From contig JAYWIR010000089.1 in the NCBI GenBank assembly GCA_036172245.1, positions 124,001 to 188,000 on the forward strand: a stretch of 64,000 nucleotides of DNA. The letters run 5' to 3'. Below the pieces are notes generated by a model. That model made no database searches. It was not told the DNA's origin and worked only from the letters and a program-made list of their open reading frames with translations. Source of the stretch: Raillietiella orientalis (Eukaryota). This document shows positions 1 through 64,000 of this stretch, in pieces (position 1 is the first letter of the stretch; the number at the start of each line of letters is the position of its first letter). The translations under genes and the position numbers were made by a program.

Positions 1-379
1 GCTTCGAAGTATGAAACGCGGATGCGCAGCGTCATTTATCATTCAAATCTTCAGGATACAAATTTTATAACATACCCTTCCAAGTATGTTCAGGCGCAAC
101 ACGTGGTTGCGGCTGTTTGGAAGCATTTTCCACTGCCGGCCCGCAGATCGGTGAAATCCCTGCTCTTGGCGATGAGGAAGGGTAAATCCTCTTCCCTACC
201 AAGAAGAAATTAAAGAAAGACAAGAAGGGAGGGAGACGTTTTTGTCGGAATGGACGGAAGGAAAGCGACCACCGTTCGCCTCGATTAGTTTTCTGCATGC
301 GATTCTGAATGCGCACAAGTGCTGATCAAAAGGTCCCTTAACGGCGCCATCGGAATGCGTTCCTCATGTTGATTGCAGA

Positions 380-2070
380 GCAGTGAATGAGGTTCCGGCT
401 GTTTTCCAGCCGGGTGTGCAGAAGCGTATATTCGAAAACTATCCCACAAAAGGAGCTCCCTGCGGAGGGTACCAAAGAACGAAAGAAGGGAGACTTAATA
501 TGAAGATCGAAAAAACTGAAAGTGCAAAACGGGCAGGAAGGGATAGCAAATGAGTATATGAAAAATAGAAATAAAAGAATTGGGGTGTTGCGAACAGGGA
601 ACCTTGCCATAGGACATTTCTTTGTTCTAAACGGACGTTGGAAGTCGGATATCTGCATGCAAACGTCCTCTCGAAGAAGAAGCCACCTGGCAGATATCGT
701 CATGTTCTCGTCGTCTGAGCTGTTGGCCTTTTGCTAAACTGCCTACGATTCCATCCGACAGCAGCAGGTGAGGATGGTGAGCATGCAAGAGATCGTTGCG
801 ATCACTGCACCTAACGATACGCCGCCTGACGCGAAAAAGAAGAGCATTAATATCCTTGCGGTGTTCCTTTGGTGAAAGAGCGTTGCATTCACCTTCCGCC
901 ACAGTCCTTGTAGGACACCGCAGTCCAAGATCGCTGCGGGTGGTTTTCAGCTTTTCCGTGCCGTCCACAATTCGCAGAAGGAATTTCGCCAGACAGGTTG
1001 TTTCGGCACTTGAGATGGAAGCTCCAGCACACTAGCAAGAGCAGGTCCTGTGTCCTATGCAAGATGGGCACTAAAGTGATCGCGAACGAAGTTGAGACCG
1101 CAAGTTCTTCCCCAGCAACACAAAGGAATTCCCCGAAGCGGACCTCTAGCAATATTGACAAGCGTGGCGCCGTCTGCAGGCTCCCTCGTCCCCCAGCAGC
1201 ATTTGAGTATGGTTGCGCCTGCAATCGCGCACGCAACCTTCCACCTTGCCGGTAGGCTACAATCCTTTCTTGCCCTTCGGAAAGACAACGCAGCGAAGAG
1301 GAACGTGGCCGCTCGATAGGTCGACTGGCTTCGCATCCAATCATCCAATGTAGGATCAAGGAGATGGTACATGTGACTCCTATCGATCAGAGACAGGATA
1401 TGAAGCGTTGTCCAGGAATATAAGGCTTCCTGCCGCCAGGCGTTGAAGTAGGTAGAGCAGCAGGAGATCCAAATGTGAGCTCACACGTGTCCGTAGAGTA
1501 GCCTCAAAGGAAATCAAAAATTACTCGTGGCGCTTTCGGCGTGTGGAAGTAATGAAAAAAGTCCGTCGGTTCCGGTGCTGCACCGCAGTACAAGGCGCAC
1601 GGGAGCACCAGGCTCTCGTCCAAAGTTCAGCACAAAGTGCAGAACGGAGCATGCACAAGGTCCCACTTGAATGTTGCGATCATGGAACTGGTATCCCAAC
1701 GCGAAGACCCGAATTTCTTGAGGTGGATTGTCGCTGATCCTCACGTAGCTTTACCCAACAGGAGAACTGCTTGGACTTTGACATAGTTTGAAGGCGAGCA
1801 AGCAAAACGAGCAGAGTGAAGAAAGGGCTATAAAGAAGTTCGAAACAGAGGCATGCTTGGACAGGGCAAACCGCCAGCTTGGACTGGGTCCGAGACACCT
1901 GCTGACTTTCGAAGGAAGTCTCATCACACTTGCATTGGAATAATGTCATCAGGCACAGCGTAAGTGTATTACAACCAACTGTGGACGAAATGCCCTGACG
2001 GAACCAGTGGGACTGCCCATCCTACTCCGCACCGTTAGAAACCACCGCACTCTTCCTCCTATTTACGCCC
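380..2070 (-). mobile_element. Decayed L1/Tx1-like LINE ORF2 3' part (post-RT, zf-RVT-like) with T-rich 3' UTR
   Basis: GQSHWFRQG (cf. GQSEWIRLG in sister copies), FNAWRQE, LPARWK, degenerate NCGRHGKAENH zinc motif; collinear with 15500-17224; many frameshifts. Confidence 0.75.
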
Positions 2071-3779
2071 ACGCTAGCCATTCGACGGTTCGGCTGCAAG
2101 GAATCCTCCAGACTGGAGGCAGGGTGGAAGGTGGTGTTGAAGAATAAGCAGTCCTTCGAAATGAACCGCTGTAGACAGAGTAATTGTACAAGAGCTGCGA
2201 AGGCTGGCCGGCGTCAGCCCATACATCAGGACGTGTTTGAGCGTATCTCCGGAGTGTACAATTCGAAATGGTATGGAAAAATTTTCTTTGACCACTTGTG
2301 ATTTTTTTGCCGGTTCCCAATGCTTTAGACGCCCTCTAGTTCCATGTGGAAAATTAGTGTGGCACGTTAGGTAATGTTGCCAATATACGGATTGTCCTCT
2401 GGTCGATAACAACTTCTATTATTTAACTCGAGAACTTTTGGTTGGCCACGGTCAGAGTTCCTGCCTGCTCCCATCAAGATCCTCCCCACATCCAATTGCC
2501 TTTGTTTTTTGCACATTTTTCAATGTCTGATGGTTGCCAAAACAAAAGATTCTGTGCCACACGAACAATTACCCACAATGGTTGCCATATCAGTGCATTT
2601 GTGCAAATTTTCCAAGTTCGTGGATCGTCGATGTGACATGTTCTTACGAGGTCTGCACAGCTCGCTAAGCACGTGAATCCGTGTCTGTAATGCGCTTATA
2701 CACTGTTAGTGTATACAGGAGAATTGATGCGCTCTCTCGTAATCGGAAAACTTTTTTAACCATGTCGAGAACGCCCTCGATCGCGTGTGTAATACTAAAA
2801 ATTTCGCAGTAATTATTAAGGTCCTCGAATTACTTGTTATCCGATATACGTTTGTGTGTCTGATGACACGTTCAGTATGGAAAGTTTGAAAGAGCATTCG
2901 AAGCATACTTTGCTAGACTCCGACTGATGTCTATACCAATGTGGTTTCCACCCACGAACATGCTCAAGTGCGATTGAAGGATGCACGTTTCCATCCTCAG
3001 CTGAAATAAGCTACAATCTCTTCAGAACCCTGAAGCGCCATAGCTCACTCAGCCATGTAGCAACCTTTGAAATTACTTTTCACTCTTGTAATGAATGCAA
3101 CTTGACTGCAGGCCTTCTGAAATATTCTCCTGCTTCCCATAAGGTCCCTCAATCCACTCCAACATTGAAACTTCCGCCCTCCTCTGAAAAAGTGAAAATT
3201 TCCCAGTAAGTGAGATTCCTCTAGATCTTACTTCCAACGTTTCCCCGTGAAGCATAATCAAGTCGTGCATGGCACTTCATAGTTTCAGAAACTATCCGAG
3301 TTTGTACTTCTTGAAGAGGAAGCAGGCTCAAGTCATTCAGCGTATTTTGAACATCCGAGGAACGATATCCCACTGAAATCCTTAGATAACGCAAACTTTC
3401 CCAATCTTCGCAAATAGCCTCATTCATCACCTCGAGCGACGTCCACTGACAGCCTCCTCTAACGCCTCCGCCATGCGATGTGAGAACATCTCCGGAGCAA
3501 TCTGTTAAAATATTTCTTTAAAACGAAGATACGTTTTTAGTTTTCACGTTGTGTGCACAACACAAACTCTCGATGCAACCTAATAGGAAGTGGCACACAC
3601 CCTATAGATACTACACACGCGTACACACTTCGTCCTTAGTTCTTACACTCCGATCATCACGGCTCTTCTTACACAATCGACATCGAATGACACTTGGTAA
3701 TGTGCACAGGACACCCTCTACGAAATTACGAATAACATAACTTCGGGATTCCACATGCGCGCGTCTAACCGTTCCGGTA

Positions 3780-5340
3780 GGTATACATCATCCAATGCGT
3801 TTCGCCTTACCAGTCCCAAAGTAATCTCATAACGTCTCTGTAGATACTGCAGACCGGCATCCGAAGGGTCGACGCAGAAACCTCCCACAAAGGCTGGAGT
3901 GCAGAGCAGTCCACTAGAAGGTGGAGCAGGGATTCCTTTTCCCCGCACACTGCACTGTTCGGTCTCACCGTCTCCTGCGTCCAGAGGAGGTGGCGTGCGT
4001 TGTAGGGAAAGCCCCAGTGAAACAACAACAGTACAGTTCGATGAGTGTCTCAACACCGGAGGCCACATCAGGTCATCCGCGAAGATGCCTAGCAGCTCGC
4101 CTTATTTCAGAAGTCTTTGCGGAAGGAAGGACAGGGTCCTGGCGTGTGCCAGCTGTCCCGTTGTATGACCGCTCACAATCTTATTTCTGCCTGCGACGAG
4201 AGAGGAGACTTGCGAACTTCCCCTGCGGCTGCAAATAAGTCCTCTATTATGAAAGGGCAGCGCCGCAGCTTGAGAGCTCTTCTCTGCCCTCGTGCTTCGG
4301 GCCGGACACTCTAGTATCTCCAGCAGAGGGAAGCGGGCGTGAGGTTCGAAAGGCAGGCGATTGCACGTCACGTGGTTCTTTTCATTTATGGTCACCCTCG
4401 TGGCAAAAGTTTCTTGCGGCCATGCGCTGGTGTCATCGAGGCTGCATACCATCCACCCTGTCTCCTTAGTCAAGGTGCCTATGCGTTCAAAGAGAAGGCG
4501 GCAACTTCTTATCTTCTTGTCGCGACATAAAAGATGAGATGCAAGACCTCGAGTGCGGGATAAACGGCTGGGGAGGTGTCCGTTTGGGGCGCACCAAGAG
4601 GTGCTCCAACACTTCGCTGCGATGGCCATGGTTCTCCATCGCAGGTAAATTTCCATCCACTGCAGCATTAGGAGGCTAAAACCGCCATCTTGGATCGGGG
4701 CACACAAGTACTTTAAGGAGACTCGAAGCCATCACTTTGCACAGAAGATGCAAATCGCCGGAGGTTCTTTTTCCTCTTTTTAATCTCTACCAGGACGAGA
4801 CAAACGAAAAGCATGGGATGAAGGAGGAGTGTCTCACACGCGTTCCACACCTCGGCCCGTTCCGGGAAGTGAAACAACCTTTCGAGGAACGAGCCGATAG
4901 TTAACACCACTTTCTGGGAACGACTGACCAGGCCTCCGACGAGAGGAAATCTCCGATAGGAACCCCAAGGTACTTCATGTACACCCCCGTGGGGATGTCC
5001 AGGCGGATCTAGCCAGGTCGACCTGGCGACGTTACTCCAACGGCTACCATTTGCGACATCACCTTCTTAACCCGCGATACTGTCGTGCCGTTCAGCAAGT
5101 CGAAACATTTCTCGACTGCGGAGCTTGGATCGGACATGGACAGCGGAAACAGTTGATGGTCAGGATGCGCAGACACATCCGTCGTACCGGGGCACGATCT
5201 CGGCCATGTAGCCAGAACCTCTCTGTACGCGCTCGACACCAGTTGAAAATGCTAAACAGCAGGGGACTTAGGCAATCGCCTGCCTGATTCCGCTCTGAGC
5301 GGCACGCCGTACACGCTTTTTCGTGTGGAAATAACGTGAA
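3780..5340 (-). mobile_element. Decayed L1/Tx1-like LINE ORF2 (RT C-half to zf-RVT)
   Basis: QAGDCLSPLLFS (RT QG-x-LSP motif), KYLGVP, FHWGFPYNAR...AVCGEKESLLHLLVDC. Confidence 0.85.
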
Positions 5341-5399
5341 TTTACGCATGGCAGGAGCAGCAGAGCTGGAAGGCCCTGAAGGCGGTCGAGAATCCCGAT

Positions 5400-6030
5400 T
5401 GAGTTTGGACGACCTGCTCGCCATAACTCCGAAAGATTGAAGCAGCTCTCAGGGCTATGGGCAGTTGGCACTCTCCTCTTGGTTTGTCAGAAGAAGGCTC
5501 TGCATATGTTGCAGTGGGCACTCCTTTGAGCAGCACGCCTCTCCCACTGGACACTGGGTGGCGTGCATGTTTATTGTGCGGGATGCAGGAAGAGCCAATC
5601 CTTCCCCCACCTAAGCAACGAGTTCGTCACCCTCCGCCTCATTTGGATTCGAAGATCGTTGATTTTAAACATTCAATTGGGCGACTAGAGAAACATTTTT
5701 CTATGCTCCCACATGGAGCACTCCCGTCCATCAGCCGCGTGTGCTGCAGTTGGTTGCCGAAAACAAGGAATTCTGGACAACGGGACTGTGTCCAGGAGGG
5801 GCCGCAGCAGCCGGAACACTATTCACTGGATAGCCATCTCGATGGGGAAGACTTTCCAATAACGGTGACTTCGAATCCTAAGACCTGCATTTGTCCGCAT
5901 TACAGCTGGTTGTAGAGGACCATGCGCGATTAGCAGTGATTGCTTCCCATCCCTCTCCTTCCCAGAAAACATTGCCTTTCCTTCTGTTTCTTATTTGTTT
6001 GCTTCTTTGTTTGTGGTTTTCCCATTTCAT
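5400..6030 (+). mobile_element. LINE ORF2 3'-end remnant (zf-RVT-like) with T-rich 3' UTR
   Basis: LHMLQWALL*AARLSHWT and ACLLCGMQEE parallel LLLLH*GLPCNARRHHWT...CAVCGEKE of the neighbouring copy; pyrimidine/T tract 5950-6030. Confidence 0.6.
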
Positions 6031-6399
6031 GCTCGTGGATAGAAAATCTCACCGGACTTTGGATCGGTAGAGAAAATTGCTCCAAGAAAGGCGGAACCGC
6101 GTGTTATGACACTAAATGTATACGGGGAGTTGATTTTAGAATTTCGACCTTTTCAAATTTTCCAGAGAAATATCCTAGTGGAAAACCAAGAACGATCGTC
6201 AGCGGTGGAGAGAGATACGGGGAATCTCAAAATGCTACTGTCGGTTTCGTTCAGCCCTGTGCTCACTGCCTCATCTCCAGACCAGTACCCAAGAGCGATC
6301 AGCTTTTAACGACGCAAGATAGCAATGTTAAGAAAAGCAGGAAACTGCTCCGCGAATGCGGGTGCGCCACTCCAACGAATGGGCGGAGACGACCCCAAT

Positions 6400-7295
6400 G
6401 GCCACGGCGCTACCCCTCCTACGGAGGGCGCTCCAAAATATTCGGAAGCCGAGATGGCAAGTCTCCTGCCGGATAGCGCGCAAAGAGAAGGATGGACCAT
6501 GGGTGGACCATGAGGGAACTGGCTGACGCCGCGACCCCAAGAGTTCACCCGCATGGACTACGGAGATGGGGCGAGCTGCTTGGCATCCCGACGGATGACC
6601 TAGAGTGGCCCCCGTCATTCATTGATTCATCAATCCTCCCCCTAAAGTGGCAGGAAACGGCGCTGTTGTTGTTGCACTGAGGTCTTCCCTGCAACGCGCG
6701 CCGCCACCACTGGACGTGGGGGAATGTTGAACAGAACTGTGCAGTGTGCGGGGAAAAGGAATCCCTCCCCCATCTGTTAGTGGACTGCACTTCCCTCCGG
6801 CCCTTGTGGGAACGTTTTGCTACGAACCTTTCAATGCCGGTAGGCAGCACCCCCAGAGACGTTATGCGACTCCTCTTCGTGCGACACGCCTTGACAGCAG
6901 CCTCAGCCCTGGCTGCACTTTGCTGCTTCCGAGGGATTGTGGCCGCGTGGAGCGCAGCCAACAGAGGAAGCAGCGACAGGGATCCCATCGTACACGCTGG
7001 TCGACACCTGCGAATCGCGATCGGCTGGTCCCATCTGGGAACAATGAAGAGGGACCTCGAGGGCATCCTCGAAAGGATGGTCTCTTCCTCCCTCGGGCTG
7101 GGATCCCTTCCCGGCCCTCCAAATAGTTTCTTTTCGTTTATTTCTTCTATTTTTCTTTTCGTTTTTACCCTGTACCCCCTCCGCTGCCGAGGAGAGTCAA
7201 GCCGGCCTGCCAGCCGGCTTCCCGGCAGGTCCAAAGAACTATTGGCCGCAGCGGGGCCTAGTACCGCGAAAGCAAAGTGTTTAGGAATAAACGCC
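6400..7295 (+). mobile_element. LINE ORF2 3'-end remnant (zf-RVT) with 3' UTR and AATAAA
   Basis: CAVCGEKESLPHLLVDC, T-rich tract ~7127-7167, hairpin 7199-7220, aataaa at 7286-7291. Confidence 0.85.
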
Positions 7296-7559
7296 CCGGC
7301 GTGACCGGGTGAGAACTCCAACGTATGTTACCCTGGAGGGCAGTTCTCGCAATTGCCCTGCGGGAGGGACAGTGGCATCTCTCCCTTCGAATGTCAGCTG
7401 CAGAAGTCGCAAGTGCTGCAGTGGCGAATTCCATGCAGGATACGGCTTCGCCGGACCACGCTGGGTTCTTCGGATGTCCATTCTGATAGGTAGAACAACA
7501 AAACGACTTTCTCGCACCTACCAAAGTGCTATTCCTTCTGCCTCCTTGCGAGTTGTCCC

Positions 7560-10500
7560 CTTGCCTTTCATGGAAACTCCACTTTGCTGTGCCAAATACA
7601 GTCGCTAACGCTACATTGCTCTTGATGCATTGGCCGTTGCGGTGCCATTTGCGGTGCTATGCAGGCATCTTGGAATCGTGGCAGCGTCGCTGCCCGGAGC
7701 AATCTGACTTCCAAGATCTTTACAGAAGCCATTCGCTAACCGACAATGTGTTTAAAGATTGCCTCTGGAAGATCTCGCCTGTGCGATACAGTCTTCTGCA
7801 ACGCAATTATTACCATTTTTTGATGTTTGCCAAAGTGGAGGTAGTTCATTCGTTCTTCTAAAACATATGCCGTGCAACACATATGCCGTGCTTTCCGTCG
7901 TTGCGAAGGAATTTGCAGAGGCATTTTAATGATTAACTCCGTTGATTGGTCGAAATTTGTATCCTGATTTCATAAGAGTTTAAGGTTTTAGAAAGTGGTC
8001 ACTGGTAACTACGAAAAAGACATCCTTGCTGAAGTGATTCGGGAGGTCTGTTCGTTTCTGGAATCATAACCCCATACACACGTTTTTGATACGTGAGTGC
8101 ACGGCATTCCTGTTGGAATCCATCAGTTTCCGGAATTTGCTTCTCTACTCATTGATCGTGTGCTTCAGGAAGTCTCAAGAACAGACCTGCTGTTCTATGA
8201 ACAAGAAAGTAAACCGATTAAAGAATTCGCGACCGCATGAAGGAGCTGCATCTCTGCTCAGCACCTGAAAAAATTGCCCCTCAATTGCTGAAAGAATTCA
8301 AAAAGATTATTCCGGCAAATTCAGCTGAGAGCATTCGCAGCAGCCATAGCTGATCAACTTTGATTTTTAGATCGGGAAAGCAATTATTATTATCTGTTCG
8401 GCTCTTGAAACAACAACAAGCTCCAATGGACCCCTTTTTCCAGCAAATTAGCACAGCATGTGCACAGTAGGGCGAAAAACCAACAGCGCCTTCCAACAAG
8501 TGAATATGTTAATGCAAATGAAAATCAATTTTGAAGCATTCCTTCGTGCTCAGCGCACGTGACAGGGAACATGTGCTTCGCATCTACGAAAATCACGCAT
8601 GTTGTGCTTTCGAAGACTCCCATACAAGTGACGCAAGCATCTCGTGGTATCTGCATTTATGGTCTGCTGCCTGCGCTTCTTGCAGCATTTGTAAAACCAG
8701 CAACTCTGGATAACTTTTGATGCAGGTACGTTCCGCTTTCGCAGTTGAGGTAACGTTTCCTGGTGTGGCGAAGACTCCAGTGAATAGCAAACAGGAATAA
8801 AGGAGAACCTGCAAGCGATGACAATTCCAAGGATGAGTATGGTGAGAATTTTTGCCGCCTCTCAAGCGTCAGCCAAGCAAGCTGTAAGAGAAAGCCCAAC
8901 GGTTGCTTTGGAGATGCACCCGAATGGTGTCGAGTGACGGCTTTGCTTAGTCGCAATCAACTCGAGGCGGAGAACGGTCAGCAAATTGAGTTTTAGAATA
9001 ACTCTGCAGTCAGCGGATCGTCGCTCCGATTTGCTCATTTCCTTGCAACTGGCCACTTCCGCTCATGGAAATACCGTTTTCCTTATCTGTACATTAGTCC
9101 GCGAAAAACGTACAGCGTAGAGTCCCCTATGCGGCGAGTTCTGTGCTAATTTCTGTTTACGTGCATAACTTGGAAGTGCAGTTTCATAAAGAAACGCTTC
9201 CTCGTTTTCTGATCATACGATGGCAAGTGTATTGAGATGGCGCTAGGATATACTTTCCCTGTAATACGAAGTGAGTGGCAGAGGGTTGAGGTACGAGACG
9301 TGTGGATCGGACATGTAATGGCATTGCTGAACAGAATAGCCTCCGGGAGAACGCAAGCATTCCGACAATATTGCGTAGGGAGTTTCGAATTCTGAAAGAA
9401 GGAACCAATCGTCTTATGTGGAATGGTTTTGTTCTTTTATCGCAGCACCATCGGCCAACTATTCCTCCGTCTGTGAGTCATAGGAAAGACTATGATTGAC
9501 ATTTGCAGTTTCCGTTGGTCATTCGTGCTAGGTTTCCACGCATCGTAAATGTTGTGCTGCTTTAAAAATTTCAAGTTTCAGAGGCTGCTGCTGGTGGTAG
9601 CTTTTTTCATCGAAAGCAACCTGGGAGCTCTGGAGTTCTTTTCACTCCGTTCTACGGAATTCGCCCTTGAGTTTCAAAATATCCTAGGAGAATGTTCGTT
9701 CGTTTTTGAGACTGCCAACGACGTGAGTCAAGACATACATCCAATCTGCAAGCAAGGATGGGGACCAAATGAATTGCCACCACCACATGAAACACCTTGT
9801 TCGGTACGCGTGGAAGTAAGTTCCTACTGCACTCTGGAAGTTTTAAAATGATTTTCTTAGTCTGCGGGAAACTCTGATGAATCTGTGCTTGTAGACATTT
9901 CAGGGGGTGAGAAGACTTGTGGCTGCGAATTCCACCCTGATCCCAGGTAAAGTAGCGTCTTGCTGCAGCATTCGAGCAGCTAGCGTCAAAGAAGCATTCA
10001 AGATGCACGAAAGTCTTTTCTCGTTGGAGACCGACGGCTGAGATTAGCACTCTAAAGCTGCGCTATCAAGCGTGCAGTGGAACGTATGAAAACGTTTCAA
10101 TAAGTAAATATCGAGTAACAGTTTTTTGAAAATTCAAATCTCTGAATCGGAGGAGCCGTTTTCTATGCCCAATAGGATCCACATAAGGAGATGCGTCTCC
10201 AATTCTGAATTGCATTGCCGCCGATTTTGACTGCAGCTATGTTTCAGACTCCCTGGCCAAGAAAATGAAAAACTGATACTGCAGACTCCATTCGTTGCAA
10301 ATTGCACGTTTCCAGAAAACACCGATTGCTGGCTGGAATTTCAAGAAGTTACCGAATCAAAATGATGGAAACAAAGTGCTCAATTTGTTTCACATGTTTG
10401 CTAAAATGAAGCTATTAACCTCTTGTTCTTTGGTTTTATTGAAAGGGTGGGCATTGGCACAAATGTCTGCTGACTTTATGGCATGACGGGCGTTTCATAT

Positions 10501-12650
10501 CGATCCAAATAACTGGACATAAGCTGAATTTCCTTTTTCTCATGTGTTTTCGCAAGAGGAAGGTCGGTTCATACTTTGAAAGAGAGGTCAGTACAGCTGA
10601 TCTCTCCAAGATGACATGAAGAACAGATTCGCGACTCCCGGTGTGACGCCAATGAAATGCTGTGATGAAGATCTCGAAGGAGTTGGGTGGATACTTCGGA
10701 CATGCGTTTGTAGGAGTGCCTTCATAGCATAAGGAAAATGGAATAATGGACGCGTAATCGGGAAGAAATACATTGATGGTTGGCAATTCACGAACAAAGA
10801 AATTGGGCGTTTTCTAATTTCATTGACTATAAGGACATTCGTACCTCTGCGCTAGAGCTGATAAGCACGCATCCTTACTGTGCCCCCAGAGGGATGTCGA
10901 CCACATTGAATGGTACCTTGACCGTATAGAAGAACTTGATTTTTCCCTTCCTGGTTTGTTAGATAGCAAAGGTAAGGAAAATTTTGATATCATCCAACAG
11001 CCTCCCAGGCCACAAGCAAGTTAACAAACGAGCAACTTTTTCCTCAGATCTCTGGGCTTTCGCTTCCTTTGCACAAACTGCAAGACCGCCTGCTCATGAT
11101 CTCAGAACGACGAAGCGCTCACTTCAAATTGAAAACCTCCCTGTAAATAACCAGACGGTTCAAAAATAGTCCGAGATGAGATTTCCCACTTCTCTGGCGT
11201 TTGTCACTTAATTTCATTGGAACCATCAACGTTGAATGTATTTAGTAAATAAAGTGTCGAGCCATTTCAAATGAAAATCGATCTTTCTCAGTTGAATGGA
11301 AGTGTAAGTCCGTAGAAGCTTGTTTGAAAAGGCATTTTCCGCAAGAAAATAATCCACAGAAATCTTCGCAAGGGAAAAAAAAAATAGAGTTTGCGAAAGA
11401 AGTCAAATGACCAACTTCTCGTTGTAACATTCTCGCAAATTACTCAGGATTCTACTTGCAAGCAGCGTATGCATTGGCATCATTCGTCTTCAGCATAATG
11501 AAGACATCAATGGATGTTTTTCTACTTGCAAACCCTCGATGTGTCCACTCAAACAGCGGATACTTTGGCTGAAGACCACTGCCGTTGTTACCGTGGCAAC
11601 CAATGCCGCTTCACGCAAGATGAGCCCTGACAGCTGGTGCCTCCGGATACCATGTTGGAATCGCAAAGGTTTCCGCACGTTCTTGAGAACGACATATTTT
11701 GATTAAATAAGAAAGGAAGATTTCATTTTGAAGTTGGAAGCACGGTGGGAAGCTGAACATTTCCGTACTAGAATTGGGTGTAGAGCGTCTCTTTCGAAGA
11801 TCGACAGCGCGAAAATGCACGTCCTCCTTTACATGGTTCCAGGCGGAACACTGATGCGTTCGAAAGATTAATTGACGACTTTCGATGTCAATTTCTGAAC
11901 AAGATTAGCGACAGTGTTCCACAAAGACTTGGAATCTGTGTACTCAAATCTGGTGTACAAAGCAAACCCATCCGAAAGGGCTTCCGGATCTTCGTTTCTT
12001 ACACCGTGTGTGAGACGTTCAATATTCGCTCGAATAGTGCCGTGCTTCCGTTATCTCAGGGTGCAATCGGTCTTTCTACGTTCGTCCATGTGCTGAAGAG
12101 GAACGATTTGGATACCATACTTCATGAACGAACAGCGCAGGACTGCGGACGTATCCCTGATGCTCCTCTTTTCGTCATCCAGTCAGTCGGCAGCCTGTCA
12201 ACGTACATGGCTTGCGCGGTTATCCGTAGCAATGAGCTTTCGTAGCCACATTGGAGTGAGAACTCCTTCTTTGGAAGGAATCTAACTTTGACTTGCCGGA
12301 AGAGGTAAAGTTCTTCTCACGCGCCAGGCTCCAGCGTTTTCCACGATTTTGGAAGGAACTCATCTCCGCAGTTATGCACCGTTGATCTCCGCAGGCAGCA
12401 TCCGGTTTCCTTAAGTTCTTTTCAAGAGTCGTTCCTTAGTTTTCCTTTCAGAACTATGTGCCAGTTTCAACTCATTAGTCGCGACTCTCCACTTCCATTT
12501 GAACAGTGTGAGAACTTCATCACTGCAAAGATATCAGCTTCCAACAAAACCATAAGGGAAAAAGCGATTCTTTTGCAAATACGAAGGCACGAATCCCATA
12601 CCGAATGCACTAAAAATGGAAGCAAATACAGTGAGGACAGCAAGGAGGTT
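7560..12650 (+). pseudogene. Possible heavily decayed large non-TE protein gene (unidentified)
   Basis: Protein-like segments between stops and frameshifts: NYEKDILAEVIREVCSFLES, FPEFASLLIDRVLQEVSRTDLLFYE, RLFRQIQLRAFAAAIADQL, HIEWYLDRIEELDFSLP, FDLPEEVKFFSRARLQRFPRFWKELI. No LINE motifs; strand and identity uncertain. Confidence 0.3.
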
Positions 12651-12659
12651 ATTTGCAGT

Positions 12660-14215
12660 TAGCGTACATTGGACTTTCTCGAGAGACTTTTAGCTGCGGC
12701 GTGCTGGATGGCACCCTTATCGCTAAGTCCTCCCATAGGCTTTCTCCAATCCGCGACGATCCCGCGAGGGCAGCACAGGGCTGCTATCGCGGCCGCAAGC
12801 CGAAGGGCATTGTTAACGAAGGGGCTTTTTAAAGCGTCCCTGGGGTTGCCGCAGAGGATACTGATGGCCGCGGCAAAGCGTAACCAGAGAATCCAAAGGA
12901 AAACACATTCCACTAGCGAGTGAGGAAGGGACTCCCGTTCCCCACAATGAACACAATCAGGGATCACCGCTCTCCAGACCCGTCTTCCACTCTCCTAGCT
13001 TCTTCTTCTTCCCGGAGATGGTTAATGAAAACACCCACTTCGCTGCAACATCGCTGTCCAGATCTTCCATTAGGGAGGCCATCGCATCAGCGAGGGGGGT
13101 CCTTCCTGACCACACTCTCTTCCACGGAGCCTCCAGGATCTCTCGAAGCGTGCAACTTCTGTAGCGCCCAAACAGGCACCGTCGTTCCTGAAGGGCGCCT
13201 TGCGTGCCGCTCTGTACACACGTGCGAACGATTTCCTGCAAACAAGCACTACCGTTCGCGGAGCGACAGTTGACCAATTTAGGGTTTCTCCGTGTCAAGG
13301 AGGCAACTATCCGTAGTTGGTATCCACATTGGCGATGGAGCACAACAAAGGGCGTGAGTTCCGTCTTCCGGGTGGCTCGCATGACGAGGAGACGAGCACG
13401 AACGCGTTAGCAGGTGCACCTCAACTCCGGCACAACGGCCATTATTCTAAACTGGAGCTGATGCAGCAGCTGCTGCAACGTCATTAGGCAGAGACTGCCG
13501 TCCCAACGCGCAGCGCACAAGTCATTCAGGCAGAGTGGGGCCATCCCGTTGCCCCAAAAGGCGATACGGAGGAGGTCGTTCGTACGCTTCTTCATTCTCT
13601 CTGTGGGGGGTGCGCAGGAGAGGAGCCGCGAACGTTTTCCAAACTGCGGTTTGTTCCGGCAGGAAACACGTGGTGCCTTGAAACGGGCGGATCTCCGACT
13701 GTGCTTTCTGGAGGCATGCGTCTCATTAAAGATAGTCCCATAACGGCACACCGAGGTACTTGAACTACCTCAGCGTGGGGATCCCCAAGCAGACCCAGTT
13801 CTGCTTCACTGTCCACGCCTCTTCAACCGGCATCACATACGACTTCGCCCTCTTCTCCGTTAGTCGTGTTTCCCGACTGAGCAGCCGAAGTTGACATAGG
13901 GAGCAGCAGCAGAAGGTCGTCCGCGTATGCTGAAACCGCAGGCGTACCGTCAGAAACGTGCGGCAGATGCGGCAGAGTTTAACTGTACGTTCTCAGTACC
14001 AACTGTAAGTAGGCACTGAAGAGGAAGGAACACAGACACTCTTTCTTCCGTATGCCATGTCGCACCGACACGCCGTGCACGGTGTGTCCACTGAGATAGA
14101 TCCGGATTAGCGCATCGCGTCAGAAGGAGCGCAGGTAGGTTACAAAGAGACCAGGAAGCCCGAGGATTTCAGTAACTCCAACAGAAGACACAGGTCTAGA
14201 AATTCGAATGCTTTA
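12660..14215 (-). mobile_element. Decayed L1/Tx1-like LINE ORF2 (RT motifs to zf-RVT)
   Basis: HKAFEFLD (cf. DLxKAFD), SAYADDLLLL near 13910-13935, KYLGVP, PDCVHCGERESLPHSLVEC. Confidence 0.85.
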
Positions 14216-53300: not shown

Positions 53301-55422
53301 TATTTTGAAACTCAAGGGCGAATTCCGTAGAACGGAGTGAAAAGAACTCCAGAGCTCCCAGGTTGCTTTCGATGAAAAAAGCTACCACCAGCAGCAGCCT
53401 CTGAAACTTGAAATTTTTAAAGCAGCACAACATTTACGATGCGTGGAAACCTAGCACGAATGACCAACGGAAACTGCAAATGTCAATCATAGTCTTTCCT
53501 ATGACTCACAGACGGAGGAATAGTTGGCCGATGGTGCTGCGATAAAAGAACAAAACCATTCCACATAAGACGATTGGTTCCTTCTTTCAGAATTCGAAAC
53601 TCCCTACGCAATATTGTCGGAATGCTTGCGTTCTCCCGGAGGCTATTCTGTTCAGCAATGCCATTACATGTCCGATCCACACGTCTCGTACCTCAACCCT
53701 CTGCCACTCACTTCGTATTACAGGGAAAGTATATCCTAGCGCCATCTCAATACACTTGCCATCGTATGATCAGAAAACGAGGAAGCGTTTCTTTATGAAA
53801 CTGCACTTCCAAGTTATGCACGTAAACAGAAATTAGCACAGAACTCGCCGCATAGGGGACTCTACGCTGTACGTTTTTCGCGGACTAATGTACAGATAAG
53901 GAAAACGGTATTTCCATGAGCGGAAGTGGCCAGTTGCAAGGAAATGAGCAAATCGGAGCGACGATCCGCTGACTGCAGAGTTATTCTAAAACTCAATTTG
54001 CTGACCGTTCTCCGCCTCGAGTTGATTGCGACTAAGCAAAGCCGTCACTCGACACCATTCGGGTGCATCTCCAAAGCAACCGTTGGGCTTTCTCTTACAG
54101 CTTGCTTGGCTGACGCTTGAGAGGCGGCAAAAATTCTCACCATACTCATCCTTGGAATTGTCATCGCTTGCAGGTTCTCCTTTATTCCTGTTTGCTATTC
54201 ACTGGAGTCTTCGCCACACCAGGAAACGTTACCTCAACTGCGAAAGCGGAACGTACCTGCATCAAAAGTTATCCAGAGTTGCTGGTTTTACAAATGCTGC
54301 AAGAAGCGCAGGCAGCAGACCATAAATGCAGATACCACGAGATGCTTGCGTCACTTGTATGGGAGTCTTCGAAAGCACAACATGCGTGATTTTCGTAGAT
54401 GCGAAGCACATGTTCCCTGTCACGTGCGCTGAGCACGAAGGAATGCTTCAAAATTGATTTTCATTTGCATTAACATATTCACTTGTTGGAAGGCGCTGTT
54501 GGTTTTTCGCCCTACTGTGCACATGCTGTGCTAATTTGCTGGAAAAAGGGGTCCATTGGAGCTTGTTGTTGTTTCAAGAGCCGAACAGATAATAATAATT
54601 GCTTTCCCGATCTAAAAATCAAAGTTGATCAGCTATGGCTGCTGCGAATGCTCTCAGCTGAATTTGCCGGAATAATCTTTTTGAATTCTTTCAGCAATTG
54701 AGGGGCAATTTTTTCAGGTGCTGAGCAGAGATGCAGCTCCTTCATGCGGTCGCGAATTCTTTAATCGGTTTACTTTCTTGTTCATAGAACAGCAGGTCTG
54801 TTCTTGAGACTTCCTGAAGCACACGATCAATGAGTAGAGAAGCAAATTCCGGAAACTGATGGATTCCAACAGGAATGCCGTGCACTCACGTATCAAAAAC
54901 GTGTGTATGGGGTTATGATTCCAGAAACGAACAGACCTCCCGAATCACTTCAGCAAGGATGTCTTTTTCGTAGTTACCAGTGACCACTTTCTAAAACCTT
55001 AAACTCTTATGAAATCAGGATACAAATTTCGACCAATCAACGGAGTTAATCATTAAAATGCCTCTGCAAATTCCTTCGCAACGACGGAAAGCACGGCATA
55101 TGTGTTGCACGGCATATGTTTTAGAAGAACGAATGAACTACCTCCACTTTGGCAAACATCAAAAAATGGTAATAATTGCGTTGCAGAAGACTGTATCGCA
55201 CAGGCGAGATCTTCCAGAGGCAATCTTTAAACACATTGTCGGTTAGCGAATGGCTTCTGTAAAGATCTTGGAAGTCAGATTGCTCCGGGCAGCGACGCTG
55301 CCACGATTCCAAGATGCCTGCATAGCACCGCAAATGGCACCGCAACGGCCAATGCATCAAGAGCAATGTAGCGTTAGCGACTGTATTTGGCACAGCAAAG
55401 TGGAGTTTCCATGAAAGGCAAG
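50332..55422 (-). pseudogene. Mirror copy of the possible decayed large gene
   Basis: Mirror of 7560-12650. Confidence 0.3.
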
Positions 55423-55685
55423 GGGACAACTCGCAAGGAGGCAGAAGGAATAGCACTTTGGTAGGTGCGAGAAAGTCGTTTTGTTGTTCTACCTATCAGA
55501 ATGGACATCCGAAGAACCCAGCGTGGTCCGGCGAAGCCGTATCCTGCATGGAATTCGCCACTGCAGCACTTGCGACTTCTGCAGCTGACATTCGAAGGGA
55601 GAGATGCCACTGTCCCTCCCGCAGGGCAATTGCGAGAACTGCCCTCCAGGGTAACTACGTTGGAGTTCTCACCCGGTCACGCCGG

Positions 55686-58600
55686 GGCGTTTATTCCTAA
55701 ACACTTTGCTTTCGCGGTACTAGGCCCCGCTGCGGCCAATAGTTCTTTGGACCTGCCGGGAAGCCGGCTGGCAGGCCGGCTTGACTCTCCTCGGCAGCGG
55801 AGGGGGTACAGGGTAAAAACGAAAAGAAAAATAGAAGAAATAAACGAAAAGAAACTATTTGGAGGGCCGGGAAGGGATCCCAGCCCGAGGGAGGAAGAGA
55901 CCATCCTTTCGAGGATGCCCTCGAGGTCCCTCTTCATTGTTCCCAGATGGGACCAGCCGATCGCGATTCGCAGGTGTCGACCAGCGTGTACGATGGGATC
56001 CCTGTCGCTGCTTCCTCTGTTGGCTGCGCTCCACGCGGCCACAATCCCTCGGAAGCAGCAAAGTGCAGCCAGGGCTGAGGCTGCTGTCAAGGCGTGTCGC
56101 ACGAAGAGGAGTCGCATAACGTCTCTGGGGGTGCTGCCTACCGGCATTGAAAGGTTCGTAGCAAAACGTTCCCACAAGGGCCGGAGGGAAGTGCAGTCCA
56201 CTAACAGATGGGGGAGGGATTCCTTTTCCCCGCACACTGCACAGTTCTGTTCAACATTCCCCCACGTCCAGTGGTGGCGGCGCGCGTTGCAGGGAAGACC
56301 TCAGTGCAACAACAACAGCGCCGTTTCCTGCCACTTTAGGGGGAGGATTGATGAATCAATGAATGACGGGGGCCACTCTAGGTCATCCGTCGGGATGCCA
56401 AGCAGCTCGCCCCATCTCCGTAGTCCATGCGGGTGAACTCTTGGGGTCGCGGCGTCAGCCAGTTCCCTCATGGTCCACCCATGGTCCATCCTTCTCTTTG
56501 CGCGCTATCCGGCAGGAGACTTGCCATCTCGGCTTCCGAATATTTTGGAGCGCCCTCCGTAGGAGGGGTAGCGCCGTGGCCATTGGGGTCGTCTCCGCCC
56601 ATTCGTTGGAGTGGCGCACCCGCATTCGCGGAGCAGTTTCCTGCTTTTCTTAACATTGCTATCTTGCGTCGTTAAAAGCTGATCGCTCTTGGGTACTGGT
56701 CTGGAGATGAGGCAGTGAGCACAGGGCTGAACGAAACCGACAGTAGCATTTTGAGATTCCCCGTATCTCTCTCCACCGCTGACGATCGTTCTTGGTTTTC
56801 CACTAGGATATTTCTCTGGAAAATTTGAAAAGGTCGAAATTCTAAAATCAACTCCCCGTATACATTTAGTGTCATAACACGCGGTTCCGCCTTTCTTGGA
56901 GCAATTTTCTCTACCGATCCAAAGTCCGGTGAGATTTTCTATCCACGAGCATGAAATGGGAAAACCACAAACAAAGAAGCAAACAAATAAGAAACAGAAG
57001 GAAAGGCAATGTTTTCTGGGAAGGAGAGGGATGGGAAGCAATCACTGCTAATCGCGCATGGTCCTCTACAACCAGCTGTAATGCGGACAAATGCAGGTCT
57101 TAGGATTCGAAGTCACCGTTATTGGAAAGTCTTCCCCATCGAGATGGCTATCCAGTGAATAGTGTTCCGGCTGCTGCGGCCCCTCCTGGACACAGTCCCG
57201 TTGTCCAGAATTCCTTGTTTTCGGCAACCAACTGCAGCACACGCGGCTGATGGACGGGAGTGCTCCATGTGGGAGCATAGAAAAATGTTTCTCTAGTCGC
57301 CCAATTGAATGTTTAAAATCAACGATCTTCGAATCCAAATGAGGCGGAGGGTGACGAACTCGTTGCTTAGGTGGGGGAAGGATTGGCTCTTCCTGCATCC
57401 CGCACAATAAACATGCACGCCACCCAGTGTCCAGTGGGAGAGGCGTGCTGCTCAAAGGAGTGCCCACTGCAACATATGCAGAGCCTTCTTCTGACAAACC
57501 AAGAGGAGAGTGCCAACTGCCCATAGCCCTGAGAGCTGCTTCAATCTTTCGGAGTTATGGCGAGCAGGTCGTCCAAACTCAATCGGGATTCTCGACCGCC
57601 TTCAGGGCCTTCCAGCTCTGCTGCTCCTGCCATGCGTAAATTCACGTTATTTCCACACGAAAAAGCGTGTACGGCGTGCCGCTCAGAGCGGAATCAGGCA
57701 GGCGATTGCCTAAGTCCCCTGCTGTTTAGCATTTTCAACTGGTGTCGAGCGCGTACAGAGAGGTTCTGGCTACATGGCCGAGATCGTGCCCCGGTACGAC
57801 GGATGTGTCTGCGCATCCTGACCATCAACTGTTTCCGCTGTCCATGTCCGATCCAAGCTCCGCAGTCGAGAAATGTTTCGACTTGCTGAACGGCACGACA
57901 GTATCGCGGGTTAAGAAGGTGATGTCGCAAATGGTAGCCGTTGGAGTAACGTCGCCAGGTCGACCTGGCTAGATCCGCCTGGACATCCCCACGGGGGTGT
58001 ACATGAAGTACCTTGGGGTTCCTATCGGAGATTTCCTCTCGTCGGAGGCCTGGTCAGTCGTTCCCAGAAAGTGGTGTTAACTATCGGCTCGTTCCTCGAA
58101 AGGTTGTTTCACTTCCCGGAACGGGCCGAGGTGTGGAACGCGTGTGAGACACTCCTCCTTCATCCCATGCTTTTCGTTTGTCTCGTCCTGGTAGAGATTA
58201 AAAAGAGGAAAAAGAACCTCCGGCGATTTGCATCTTCTGTGCAAAGTGATGGCTTCGAGTCTCCTTAAAGTACTTGTGTGCCCCGATCCAAGATGGCGGT
58301 TTTAGCCTCCTAATGCTGCAGTGGATGGAAATTTACCTGCGATGGAGAACCATGGCCATCGCAGCGAAGTGTTGGAGCACCTCTTGGTGCGCCCCAAACG
58401 GACACCTCCCCAGCCGTTTATCCCGCACTCGAGGTCTTGCATCTCATCTTTTATGTCGCGACAAGAAGATAAGAAGTTGCCGCCTTCTCTTTGAACGCAT
58501 AGGCACCTTGACTAAGGAGACAGGGTGGATGGTATGCAGCCTCGATGACACCAGCGCATGGCCGCAAGAAACTTTTGCCACGAGGGTGACCATAAATGAA

Positions 58601-59201
58601 AAGAACCACGTGACGTGCAATCGCCTGCCTTTCGAACCTCACGCCCGCTTCCCTCTGCTGGAGATACTAGAGTGTCCGGCCCGAAGCACGAGGGCAGAGA
58701 AGAGCTCTCAAGCTGCGGCGCTGCCCTTTCATAATAGAGGACTTATTTGCAGCCGCAGGGGAAGTTCGCAAGTCTCCTCTCTCGTCGCAGGCAGAAATAA
58801 GATTGTGAGCGGTCATACAACGGGACAGCTGGCACACGCCAGGACCCTGTCCTTCCTTCCGCAAAGACTTCTGAAATAAGGCGAGCTGCTAGGCATCTTC
58901 GCGGATGACCTGATGTGGCCTCCGGTGTTGAGACACTCATCGAACTGTACTGTTGTTGTTTCACTGGGGCTTTCCCTACAACGCACGCCACCTCCTCTGG
59001 ACGCAGGAGACGGTGAGACCGAACAGTGCAGTGTGCGGGGAAAAGGAATCCCTGCTCCACCTTCTAGTGGACTGCTCTGCACTCCAGCCTTTGTGGGAGG
59101 TTTCTGCGTCGACCCTTCGGATGCCGGTCTGCAGTATCTACAGAGACGTTATGAGATTACTTTGGGACTGGTAAGGCGAAACGCATTGGATGATGTATAC
59201 C
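55686..59201. mobile_element. Mirror copies of LINE remnants 3780-7295
   Basis: Mirror ORFs with coordinate sum 62981. Confidence 0.8.
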
Positions 59202-60910
59202 TACCGGAACGGTTAGACGCGCGCATGTGGAATCCCGAAGTTATGTTATTCGTAATTTCGTAGAGGGTGTCCTGTGCACATTACCAAGTGTCATTCGATG
59301 TCGATTGTGTAAGAAGAGCCGTGATGATCGGAGTGTAAGAACTAAGGACGAAGTGTGTACGCGTGTGTAGTATCTATAGGGTGTGTGCCACTTCCTATTA
59401 GGTTGCATCGAGAGTTTGTGTTGTGCACACAACGTGAAAACTAAAAACGTATCTTCGTTTTAAAGAAATATTTTAACAGATTGCTCCGGAGATGTTCTCA
59501 CATCGCATGGCGGAGGCGTTAGAGGAGGCTGTCAGTGGACGTCGCTCGAGGTGATGAATGAGGCTATTTGCGAAGATTGGGAAAGTTTGCGTTATCTAAG
59601 GATTTCAGTGGGATATCGTTCCTCGGATGTTCAAAATACGCTGAATGACTTGAGCCTGCTTCCTCTTCAAGAAGTACAAACTCGGATAGTTTCTGAAACT
59701 ATGAAGTGCCATGCACGACTTGATTATGCTTCACGGGGAAACGTTGGAAGTAAGATCTAGAGGAATCTCACTTACTGGGAAATTTTCACTTTTTCAGAGG
59801 AGGGCGGAAGTTTCAATGTTGGAGTGGATTGAGGGACCTTATGGGAAGCAGGAGAATATTTCAGAAGGCCTGCAGTCAAGTTGCATTCATTACAAGAGTG
59901 AAAAGTAATTTCAAAGGTTGCTACATGGCTGAGTGAGCTATGGCGCTTCAGGGTTCTGAAGAGATTGTAGCTTATTTCAGCTGAGGATGGAAACGTGCAT
60001 CCTTCAATCGCACTTGAGCATGTTCGTGGGTGGAAACCACATTGGTATAGACATCAGTCGGAGTCTAGCAAAGTATGCTTCGAATGCTCTTTCAAACTTT
60101 CCATACTGAACGTGTCATCAGACACACAAACGTATATCGGATAACAAGTAATTCGAGGACCTTAATAATTACTGCGAAATTTTTAGTATTACACACGCGA
60201 TCGAGGGCGTTCTCGACATGGTTAAAAAAGTTTTCCGATTACGAGAGAGCGCATCAATTCTCCTGTATACACTAACAGTGTATAAGCGCATTACAGACAC
60301 GGATTCACGTGCTTAGCGAGCTGTGCAGACCTCGTAAGAACATGTCACATCGACGATCCACGAACTTGGAAAATTTGCACAAATGCACTGATATGGCAAC
60401 CATTGTGGGTAATTGTTCGTGTGGCACAGAATCTTTTGTTTTGGCAACCATCAGACATTGAAAAATGTGCAAAAAACAAAGGCAATTGGATGTGGGGAGG
60501 ATCTTGATGGGAGCAGGCAGGAACTCTGACCGTGGCCAACCAAAAGTTCTCGAGTTAAATAATAGAAGTTGTTATCGACCAGAGGACAATCCGTATATTG
60601 GCAACATTACCTAACGTGCCACACTAATTTTCCACATGGAACTAGAGGGCGTCTAAAGCATTGGGAACCGGCAAAAAAATCACAAGTGGTCAAAGAAAAT
60701 TTTTCCATACCATTTCGAATTGTACACTCCGGAGATACGCTCAAACACGTCCTGATGTATGGGCTGACGCCGGCCAGCCTTCGCAGCTCTTGTACAATTA
60801 CTCTGTCTACAGCGGTTCATTTCGAAGGACTGCTTATTCTTCAACACCACCTTCCACCCTGCCTCCAGTCTGGAGGATTCCTTGCAGCCGAACCGTCGAA
60901 TGGCTAGCGT

Positions 60911-62601
60911 GGGCGTAAATAGGAGGAAGAGTGCGGTGGTTTCTAACGGTGCGGAGTAGGATGGGCAGTCCCACTGGTTCCGTCAGGGCATTTCGTCCAC
61001 AGTTGGTTGTAATACACTTACGCTGTGCCTGATGACATTATTCCAATGCAAGTGTGATGAGACTTCCTTCGAAAGTCAGCAGGTGTCTCGGACCCAGTCC
61101 AAGCTGGCGGTTTGCCCTGTCCAAGCATGCCTCTGTTTCGAACTTCTTTATAGCCCTTTCTTCACTCTGCTCGTTTTGCTTGCTCGCCTTCAAACTATGT
61201 CAAAGTCCAAGCAGTTCTCCTGTTGGGTAAAGCTACGTGAGGATCAGCGACAATCCACCTCAAGAAATTCGGGTCTTCGCGTTGGGATACCAGTTCCATG
61301 ATCGCAACATTCAAGTGGGACCTTGTGCATGCTCCGTTCTGCACTTTGTGCTGAACTTTGGACGAGAGCCTGGTGCTCCCGTGCGCCTTGTACTGCGGTG
61401 CAGCACCGGAACCGACGGACTTTTTTCATTACTTCCACACGCCGAAAGCGCCACGAGTAATTTTTGATTTCCTTTGAGGCTACTCTACGGACACGTGTGA
61501 GCTCACATTTGGATCTCCTGCTGCTCTACCTACTTCAACGCCTGGCGGCAGGAAGCCTTATATTCCTGGACAACGCTTCATATCCTGTCTCTGATCGATA
61601 GGAGTCACATGTACCATCTCCTTGATCCTACATTGGATGATTGGATGCGAAGCCAGTCGACCTATCGAGCGGCCACGTTCCTCTTCGCTGCGTTGTCTTT
61701 CCGAAGGGCAAGAAAGGATTGTAGCCTACCGGCAAGGTGGAAGGTTGCGTGCGCGATTGCAGGCGCAACCATACTCAAATGCTGCTGGGGGACGAGGGAG
61801 CCTGCAGACGGCGCCACGCTTGTCAATATTGCTAGAGGTCCGCTTCGGGGAATTCCTTTGTGTTGCTGGGGAAGAACTTGCGGTCTCAACTTCGTTCGCG
61901 ATCACTTTAGTGCCCATCTTGCATAGGACACAGGACCTGCTCTTGCTAGTGTGCTGGAGCTTCCATCTCAAGTGCCGAAACAACCTGTCTGGCGAAATTC
62001 CTTCTGCGAATTGTGGACGGCACGGAAAAGCTGAAAACCACCCGCAGCGATCTTGGACTGCGGTGTCCTACAAGGACTGTGGCGGAAGGTGAATGCAACG
62101 CTCTTTCACCAAAGGAACACCGCAAGGATATTAATGCTCTTCTTTTTCGCGTCAGGCGGCGTATCGTTAGGTGCAGTGATCGCAACGATCTCTTGCATGC
62201 TCACCATCCTCACCTGCTGCTGTCGGATGGAATCGTAGGCAGTTTAGCAAAAGGCCAACAGCTCAGACGACGAGAACATGACGATATCTGCCAGGTGGCT
62301 TCTTCTTCGAGAGGACGTTTGCATGCAGATATCCGACTTCCAACGTCCGTTTAGAACAAAGAAATGTCCTATGGCAAGGTTCCCTGTTCGCAACACCCCA
62401 ATTCTTTTATTTCTATTTTTCATATACTCATTTGCTATCCCTTCCTGCCCGTTTTGCACTTTCAGTTTTTTCGATCTTCATATTAAGTCTCCCTTCTTTC
62501 GTTCTTTGGTACCCTCCGCAGGGAGCTCCTTTTGTGGGATAGTTTTCGAATATACGCTTCTGCACACCCGGCTGGAAAACAGCCGGAACCTCATTCACTG
62601 C
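60911..62601 (+). mobile_element. Mirror copy of LINE remnant 380-2070
   Basis: Mirror ORFs with coordinate sum 62981. Confidence 0.75.
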
Positions 62602-64000
62602 TCTGCAATCAACATGAGGAACGCATTCCGATGGCGCCGTTAAGGGACCTTTTGATCAGCACTTGTGCGCATTCAGAATCGCATGCAGAAAACTAATCGA
62701 GGCGAACGGTGGTCGCTTTCCTTCCGTCCATTCCGACAAAAACGTCTCCCTCCCTTCTTGTCTTTCTTTAATTTCTTCTTGGTAGGGAAGAGGATTTACC
62801 CTTCCTCATCGCCAAGAGCAGGGATTTCACCGATCTGCGGGCCGGCAGTGGAAAATGCTTCCAAACAGCCGCAACCACGTGTTGCGCCTGAACATACTTG
62901 GAAGGGTATGTTATAAAATTTGTATCCTGAAGATTTGAATGATAAATGACGCTGCGCATCCGCGTTTCATACTTCGAAGCGCAAATTTTTAATTTCCAGA
63001 TTCATCGGACAGGAAAATCAATTAGGTGATGTTGGTTTGCGGCAATCTTCTTCTGCAGCAGAGTTTTTTGAGTAATGGTAATCGTTGTCATGAAGCTCTT
63101 TTCAAGCAGCAACGGAGGAATCTGCGCTAATTTTGCGTTTCTGCACCGCTACTAACATGTGGAAACCAAGGGAATGTTTCCCAGGACTACGTGCCGGTGT
63201 TCATTTATATACTTCCGATAAGCGCGGTCTGCAGAATACTTGGTGAAGCAACACTTGGAAGCTGCGTGGGTTGCGATCGTGGAGCACGTCAACCTTTTCT
63301 TAGAATTGGACTTTATACGCCACAATAGCACGATGTTCTGAAATCTTGGCACCCCTGGCTTCTTCGATTATGCCATTCCTGAATTAGAAGTACGCAATAA
63401 TGACTTTCCAGATGATCTCAATTGATGAGCTGTATGGATCCCAAGTCCTCAATCACTCTTACATTGGTTCTCGTTGTCTTCCCCTCAGTCGTTTATCTTA
63501 CTTGGTTTTCCCATAAACAGTAACTAATGTAGAAGTTTGGAAATAAGGAGGCATTGCGGATGTGGGCGCAACATTAGGACTTACTCGAAACTTTCCTTTC
63601 CGCATTCATGTTCTTCCTTTTTTGCCTGATTTCCAAATGCTGTTTCGCTTATATCTGATTGAGATTTCAGAATATCTCTCTCTCATTTGTAAAGTCGGAA
63701 GAGCTCACGCTGCTTGCCAGGCAGGAACGTAACTCCAAAAGTGCAAGGCGTACGATGTTACAAGCGCCAAATTAAACAGATGCCGAGTTCTCGCGAATGT
63801 GGTTAACTCCCGTTTCTTCGTAACAGATGGAAAGAGAATGTTTTCGGGGAGTTCTCTGAGAATAAATCTTCCACACTAAGCAACTACACAATCAAAAATG
63901 TGGTTGGCATCTGCCGAAATCACGCATGTTTTGATTTTGGAATCTCCAATGGAAGTAAATCAACCATTTCGAGATGCATGCATCTGTGGTTAGTTGCTTG

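Follow-up and report, generated by a model that had tools for sequence, protein, structure and literature searches.

We consider here a stretch of 64,000 nucleotides from Raillietiella orientalis, called the window in the following, which corresponds to positions 124001-188000 of contig JAYWIR010000089.1 (C89) in assembly GCA_036172245.1. The assembly amounts to 210 Mb in 491 contigs; C89 spans 280,930 bp and is unplaced. Coordinates without a contig name are counted from the first base of the window. The window is occupied by a giant palindrome, i.e., two near-identical inverted arms around a spacer. As judged from the assembled sequence, this palindrome is probably, if by no means certainly, real, and its core would stem from a single, very recent event of homology-directed copying over a long tract between older inverted repeats.

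A first-pass annotation had claimed arms of at least 26.5 kb around a 10-kb spacer. Self-BLAST bears this out: 1-26480 pairs with the reverse complement of 36503-62980 at 99.913% identity over 26,484 columns. The mirror of 62981-64000 expected upstream of base 1 is present as well, and the arms outreach the window both ways. In full, they extend over C89:121002-150480 and C89:160503-189979, which means 29.5 kb each at 99.88% identity over 29,483 columns and 69 kb for the whole structure. The outermost 122 bp of the arms contain 12 substitutions (about 89% identity). The near-identical core of 29.4 kb begins at C89:121124 and is free of any difference up to C89:124100. The spacer is unmirrored apart from one 68% match between reverse transcriptase (RT) sequences in its two halves, and two junction-spanning spacer queries retrieved nothing above 88% elsewhere in the genome. 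Beyond the arms, C89 continues with 121 kb (left) and 91 kb (right) of other sequence; the first 107 kb of the contig have no match above 74% on the right-hand side. A fold-back of the whole contig is ruled out, since the mirror ends at C89:121002/189979, inside the contig.

Both ends of the identical tract sit in older inverted homology. At the outer end, the core passes in register into the 122 bp just mentioned and then into an inverted copy of 2.7 kb: the right flank, C89:189983-192645, is an inverted copy of C89:107742-110405 with 89.8% identity. The edge at C89:121002 owes its position to a right-flank deletion, and the old homology extends to C89:107742. A third copy, C89:226695-258472, matches C89:107003-141788 in blocks of 89-98%. 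It is unbroken across the left edge, which implies that the left flank is natural. Its identity is patchy, from 77% to 100% in 500-bp bins. In a three-way alignment of left flank, right flank and third copy, 462 informative sites fall into 177 runs, as opposed to 270 after shuffling (p = 1e-4), and a run of 96 sites, around C89:108750-109350 in the old flank, unites left with right. From this departure it follows that the left and right flank copies exchanged sequence earlier and separately from the core. A bias towards GC is not significant: AT>GC and GC>AT changes number 24:16 on the arm lineage and 21:27 on the third copy (p = 0.14). The idea of a very recent inverted duplication into unrelated DNA is not tenable with these ends. 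That the flanks are two alleles joined via a heterozygous inversion is also unsupported; the homology between them consists only of repeats and amplicon copies.

At the inner end, the spacer is bounded by two related long interspersed nuclear element (LINE) copies, A and B, in inverted orientation. Past the end of the arm, 16 of 22 aligned paralogues continue like the left side, with a full endonuclease, and the other six like the right side, with the endonuclease deleted. Arm identity ends about 15 bp short of the point where these types diverge. The first-pass annotation singled out 36502/36503 as the junction to be tested, but the sequence leading from right arm to spacer is common to the six paralogous LINE copies, which rules out a unique junction. 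In consequence, PCR products or reads across it need locus-specific variants as anchors. As to the donor of the inner arm, one diagnostic site upstream of the junction is B-like, while mean identity is equal or slightly higher to A-type copies. The endonuclease-deleted subfamily, which includes a copy at C92:135560 on another contig, has a common replacement segment of about 118 bp (36385-36502) and is possibly a non-autonomous lineage.

These junctions also bear on the possibility of an inverted duplication that arose de novo, following a break, by fold-back priming at a few bases of microhomology. Such repair is indeed described as producing a single-copy spacer with an arm on either side (PMC9199198). 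The new junction that it predicts is, however, absent, both inner junctions matching existing LINE subfamilies. Nor is there a terminal deletion: the 91 kb past the right arm start in the old paralogue. We regard this origin as highly improbable.

The sequence content was searched by tblastn with 11 baits, five of them the window's own open reading frames (ORFs). Retroelement-type ORF matches cover at least 48% of the right arm and 78% of the spacer. The arms are made up of nested remnants of retroelements without long terminal repeats (non-LTR), as judged from RT, endonuclease and C2H2 matches (Table 1). That the palindrome is built largely of dead retrotransposons is correct as regards the retrotransposons, but not all are dead: ORF1 of the LINE in the right arm (37328-38323) is open over 332 aa. 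The region had also been called non-genic, and this holds as far as tested, Pfam, Rfam and a comparison with contig C92 having revealed no host gene. Specifically, none of 95 stop-to-stop ORFs of at least 75 aa from 39300-46000 and 49900-64000 reaches the Pfam cut-off; the sub-threshold matches among them are RT and zinc-finger domains plus three weak unrelated ones. An Rfam scan of 26000-64000 yielded no match. The arms share no long conserved host-type frame with their C92 paralogue, although short exons could escape this comparison. A giant mobile element, too, was sought in the backbone by the Pfam scan and the C92 comparison, and none was found.

Table 1. Features of the window (coordinates counted from its first base; strand "." where none applies)
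Feature	Position	Strand	Remarks
Left arm, part within the window	1..26480	+	Self-BLAST; 2,999 bp more upstream, to C89:121002
Error-like difference cluster on left arm	25136..26132	+	Comparison with 15 paralogues
LINE copy A: ORF1 and ORF2 start in arm; endonuclease and RT run into spacer	24660..28676	+	Full-length type
Spacer, 10,022 bp	26481..36502	.	About 78% LINE-protein-derived
Second decayed LINE ORF2, in spacer	28717..31472	+	RVT_1, E 5e-16
LINE copy B: open ORF1 (37328-38323) and ORF2 start in arm, segment 36385-36502, RT remnant in spacer	34760..38323	-	
Right arm, part within the window	36503..64000	-	Runs on to C89:189979; includes 62981-64000
104-bp unit, 1.9 copies, 98% identical	39281..39473	.	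Mirrored at 23510-23702
Decayed non-LTR element, C2H2 fingers and RT piece	40103..45091	-	Mirrored in left arm
Nested LINE ORF1/ORF2 fragments, both strands	45716..50236	.	Mirrored in left arm
Low-GC non-coding backbone	50300..54750	.	
Further LINE and zinc-finger element remnants	55680..61818	.	Mirrored in left arm

LINE copy A we take to be L1/Tx1-like, and the decayed element with C2H2 fingers presumably is R2-like. Directly after the RT piece of the latter lies an open frame of 491 aa (40103-41575, minus strand; mirrored in the left arm). Towards its C-terminus this frame resembles LINE ORF1 baits (25-33%), and it probably represents two nested elements in one frame. A short motif at about 62680-62720 (plus strand), presumably the C-terminus of a Tc1/mariner transposase, found no match in the Pfam scan.

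Elsewhere on C89, a fragment of a plasma-membrane Ca-ATPase (PMCA; C89:96322-98520) is apparently intronless and frameshifted; its best animal matches reach 78-83%, and it is probably a processed pseudogene. An open LINE ORF2 of 1,206 aa with endonuclease, RT and zf-RVT lies at C89:203073-206690, and another element with open frames of 623 and 808 aa at C89:115772-119994. A frame of 329 aa with a hydrophobic, signal-like stretch (C89:45983-46969) has a near-identical copy on contig C73 and a 71% relative on C6; a frame of 368 aa (C89:101638-102741) has relatives of 65-69% on C10, C63 and C21. C73:347135-404357 shares segments of 97-99% with C89:1-47205, and the last 6.5 kb of C73 are a noisy direct copy of C73:379619-386103. 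On C32, a large palindrome is absent; 100 kb there contain only two inverted pairs, of 777 bp (99.5%) and 852 bp (98.5%), which are 29 kb and 63 kb apart (C32:1951514-1981085 and C32:1958337-2023257).

In a search with the query 51000-54000, the arm backbone was found only on C89 (three copies) and, at 73-78%, on C92. The latter contig was examined over 15001-264330. It contains an inverted pair of its own, C92:51659-75674 and C92:208403-232406, which is 98.96% identical over 24,018 columns and encloses a spacer of 133 kb. The spectrum of differences is that of mutation (129 transitions, 106 transversions, 9 indels), and their density is patchy, ranging from 0 to 49 substitutions/kb, with 47-49 in the outer rim and 0-4 in much of the inner half. 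Being mutations and not chimeras of reads, these differences demonstrate that long inverted duplicates do arise in this region. Between old copies among the duplicates on C89 and C92, transitions about equal transversions (e.g., 214:209, 173:189 and 621:559) and CpG is undepleted. A signature of repeat-induced point mutation (RIP) type or of CpG decay was not detected, the ratio of observed to expected CpG being 0.84-1.19. C92:223959-240000 matches the end of C63 over 16 kb at 99.99%, so that C63 ends within an arm of the C92 palindrome; this match is probably a contig overlap.

On the shared backbone, divergence is 0-0.04% between the arms of C89, 0.5-1.7% between those of C92, 0.9-3.3% for the third copy and 21-29% between the loci. 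This is the topology of concerted evolution. It raises the question of an ancient palindrome that predates the split of C89 and C92 and is kept identical by frequent short conversions from arm to arm, much as on the primate Y chromosome but free of genes. On C89, the position equivalent to the outer edge of the C92 pair is C89:120566, only 436 bp from the rim, and both pairs have diverged outer rims. Further, a separate conversion patch exists outside the core, and 99.98% is close to the 99.97% reported for human P6 (PMC3723533). Inverted repeats of Caenorhabditis are described as keeping their structure during sequence turnover (PMC1803023). Independent young duplications at two paralogous loci would, however, yield an equal topology. 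The C89 edge was set by the deletion in the right flank, so that the coincidence of edges may be due to chance. Inner edges and spacers (10 kb versus 133 kb) differ between the loci, and pieces of the backbone are inverted. The core also lacks the patchiness of C92, and the GC bias, as said, is not significant. Overall, we deem an ancient palindrome of this kind quite unlikely. The broader idea that both palindromes are one ancestral structure, i.e., that gene-free retrotransposon palindromes of 24-29 kb persist in very long concerted evolution, their arms being overwritten while the loci drift 21-29% apart, is unlikely.

The explanation we favour is one recent copying event, in which one side was overwritten with the sequence of its older inverted relative or the reverse. 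Two older inverted homologies would already have been face to face at this locus: the LINE pair that bounds the spacer and the outer inverted duplicate of 89-90%. A break or a collapsed fork would have been repaired from the inverted partner, either by long-tract gene conversion or by break-induced replication with a return switch. Invasion may have taken place in either homology, LINE pair or old duplicate, and would have been followed by synthesis over about 29 kb of nested dead retroelements and by a return in the other homology. With entry and rejoining both within homology, no new junction is created. A uniform core next to a patchy C92 pair favours one recent sweep over an equilibrium. 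The sequence shows the architecture, the older homology at both ends and an earlier, separate exchange between left and right; we infer the single event, the repair pathway and also the existence of the molecule in the animal. The three options of the first-pass annotation, recent inverted duplication, ongoing conversion or artefact, were the right set; the analysis changes two points, in that 36502/36503 is no locus-specific fold-back junction and a duplication would not have gone into unrelated DNA.

The differences between the arms are critical in this context. Six had been listed, and all are present: an indel at 7326, G/T at 10026, A/T at 13124, G/T at 18203, a poly-C of 15 versus 14 at 19150, and C/A at 23226. 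The list, declared to be a lower bound, is complete up to 25135, but 15 further events, 6 indels and 9 substitutions, follow at 25136-26440. Apart from this inner cluster, 28,012 bp of core contain only the six listed events, 4 substitutions and 2 indels, which corresponds to 99.979% identity. The outer differences polarise to both arms: the right one is odd at 7326, 10026 and 18203, the left one at 13124, and 23226 is without a paralogue. Real divergence of the arms amounts to no more than the 4 substitutions (1.4e-4 over 28,012 bp) and possibly to none.

In the inner cluster, the left arm is the odd one against 15 paralogues at all six indels and at six of the nine substitutions, and the cluster looks like consensus noise of the left arm. 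The noise ends at 26132. On its spacer side, the left junction is clean: over 2.2 kb, private changes comprise 172 substitutions and 3 indels. This pattern is compatible with errors left uncorrected in a single repeat copy, and with thin support near this junction as well. The doubtful spot is the left inner edge and not 36502/36503. That the inner 1.35 kb are an older stratum of conversion is unlikely, since the odd alleles are one-sided and rich in indels. Alternatively, the cluster may reflect clustered mutation by error-prone repair synthesis.

A number of observations weigh against one recent copy in a real palindrome. The arms may be wholly identical, which is precisely what an artefact predicts, and the four outer substitutions are all transversions, which also counts for an artefact. 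Fifteen of the 21 events lie within the inner 1,345 bp (p = 3e-16), and the ratio of indels to substitutions is 8:13 between the arms but 46:1721 in seven alignments of older copies (p = 6e-8). The inner cluster resembles the noise at the end of C73, as seen by comparison with its internal copy, and indicates that the assembly is thinly supported near the left junction. That the assembler struggled in repeats is seen from neighbouring contigs, which end within them. LINE copy A has a 7-bp deletion 8 bp past the left junction, and copies of the seeding LINE family share no more than 75-86% identity in the inner 828 bp, far below the repeats of 98-99.9% reported in PMC11293582. In human P6, minimum tracts were inferred to reach at most 9,023 bp (PMC3723533), one third of the 29 kb required here.

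Several of these points would be accommodated by an assembly artefact. One true core could have been written twice, because of a chimeric or fold-back read, e.g., from whole-genome amplification, or of a mis-join via the LINE pair; or less similar arms could have been collapsed. Error-like differences crowded beside the left junction and contig ends that overlap or duplicate nearby are compatible with it. Palindromic long reads are common after amplification: in amplified libraries, 40-50% of Arabidopsis reads are reported to be palindromic (10.1101/173872), and about one third of mitochondrial reads in another account (PMC13265396). Lists of palindromes drawn from assemblies are stated to include misassemblies (PMC7953838). 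The evidence from the locus itself, however, does not fit well. All four junctions run on into older homologues, with different sequence after each arm. A fold-back makes one new junction and usually mirrors the sequence to the contig end. An artefact would require two wrong joins, each of them in register. The clean spacer next to the left arm agrees with noise left uncorrected in one repeat copy, and the inverted copies of mutation type at 89-99% cannot be chimeras. Finally, no allelic duplicate was seen for the arm backbone or for C89:101400-103400. An artefact is on the unlikely side, but to be taken seriously.

Comparison with known systems yields partial likenesses. Like human P6 and other palindromes of the primate Y and X chromosomes, the C89 structure has arms of more than 10 kb at more than 99% identity (99.98% in the core), a spacer that is not duplicated, and signs of exchange between left and right. 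It differs in that no gene was found in its arms, in ending at a LINE pair and an older diverged duplicate, and in a GC bias that is not significant. Arm conversion of the primate type is evident for the flank patch; in the core, it is inseparable from one long copy. That the structure predates the divergence of its arms, as in the primate type, is at most suggested by the C92 paralogue. We do not file the palindrome under the primate sex-chromosome type. With the DUP-TRP/INV-DUP rearrangements described in PMC11293582 it shares a switch within an existing pair of inverted repeats, here LINE A/B, that leaves no new junction. In contrast to these, it has both ends, not just one, in homology, and its seeds would be diverged LINEs instead of low-copy repeats of 98-99.9%. 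It also lacks a triplicated segment, there being two young copies, a single spacer and a third copy diverged by 0.9-3.3% on the backbone.

The palindromes of Folsomia candida and Adineta vaga (PMC5490193, PMC7953838) are likewise large inverted duplicates in invertebrate assemblies and are subject to the same caveat of misassembly. These are reported to have been found via collinear genes, whereas that of C89 is gene-free and near-identical; in F. candida, wide Ks values were taken to argue against concerted evolution (PMC5490193). The palindromic chimeras of amplified and long-read libraries (10.1101/173872, PMC13265396) resemble the C89 arms in being identical save for error-like differences, although here up to 4 outer substitutions could be real. 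They differ from a locus where all junctions lie in older homology, the sequence after the arms differs, and mutation-type inverted copies of several ages are found around. In the inverted repeats of Caenorhabditis, as reported in PMC1803023, arm pairs are also far closer to each other than to related loci. Those are, however, about 2 kb long, lie between paralogous genes and are compared across species, while on C89 and C92 they measure 24-29 kb, are gene-free and belong to paralogous loci of one genome. For arthropods, a non-exhaustive literature search revealed no retrotransposon palindrome described as free of genes and under conversion.

Taken as a single locus, a large spacer palindrome of dead retroelements is ordinary. 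No function is implied; it is a by-product of an amplicon region prone to duplication and conversion. Its value lies in the neutral record that it provides: in the absence of a gene under selection, one sees long copy tracts that start and stop at the limits of older homology, diverged LINE pairs included, and the same segment exchanged several times. If the palindrome were an artefact, similar ones in this assembly would become suspect, and with them the gene duplicates called from them. If it and the other palindromes of this genome are real, one could ask directly in this species if mutation pressure alone maintains large palindromes or if selection on the genes in them is required. Should the reading as concerted evolution turn out to be true genome-wide, R. 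orientalis would be subject to a regime in which inverted duplication and intrachromosomal conversion proceed without requiring selection on genes.

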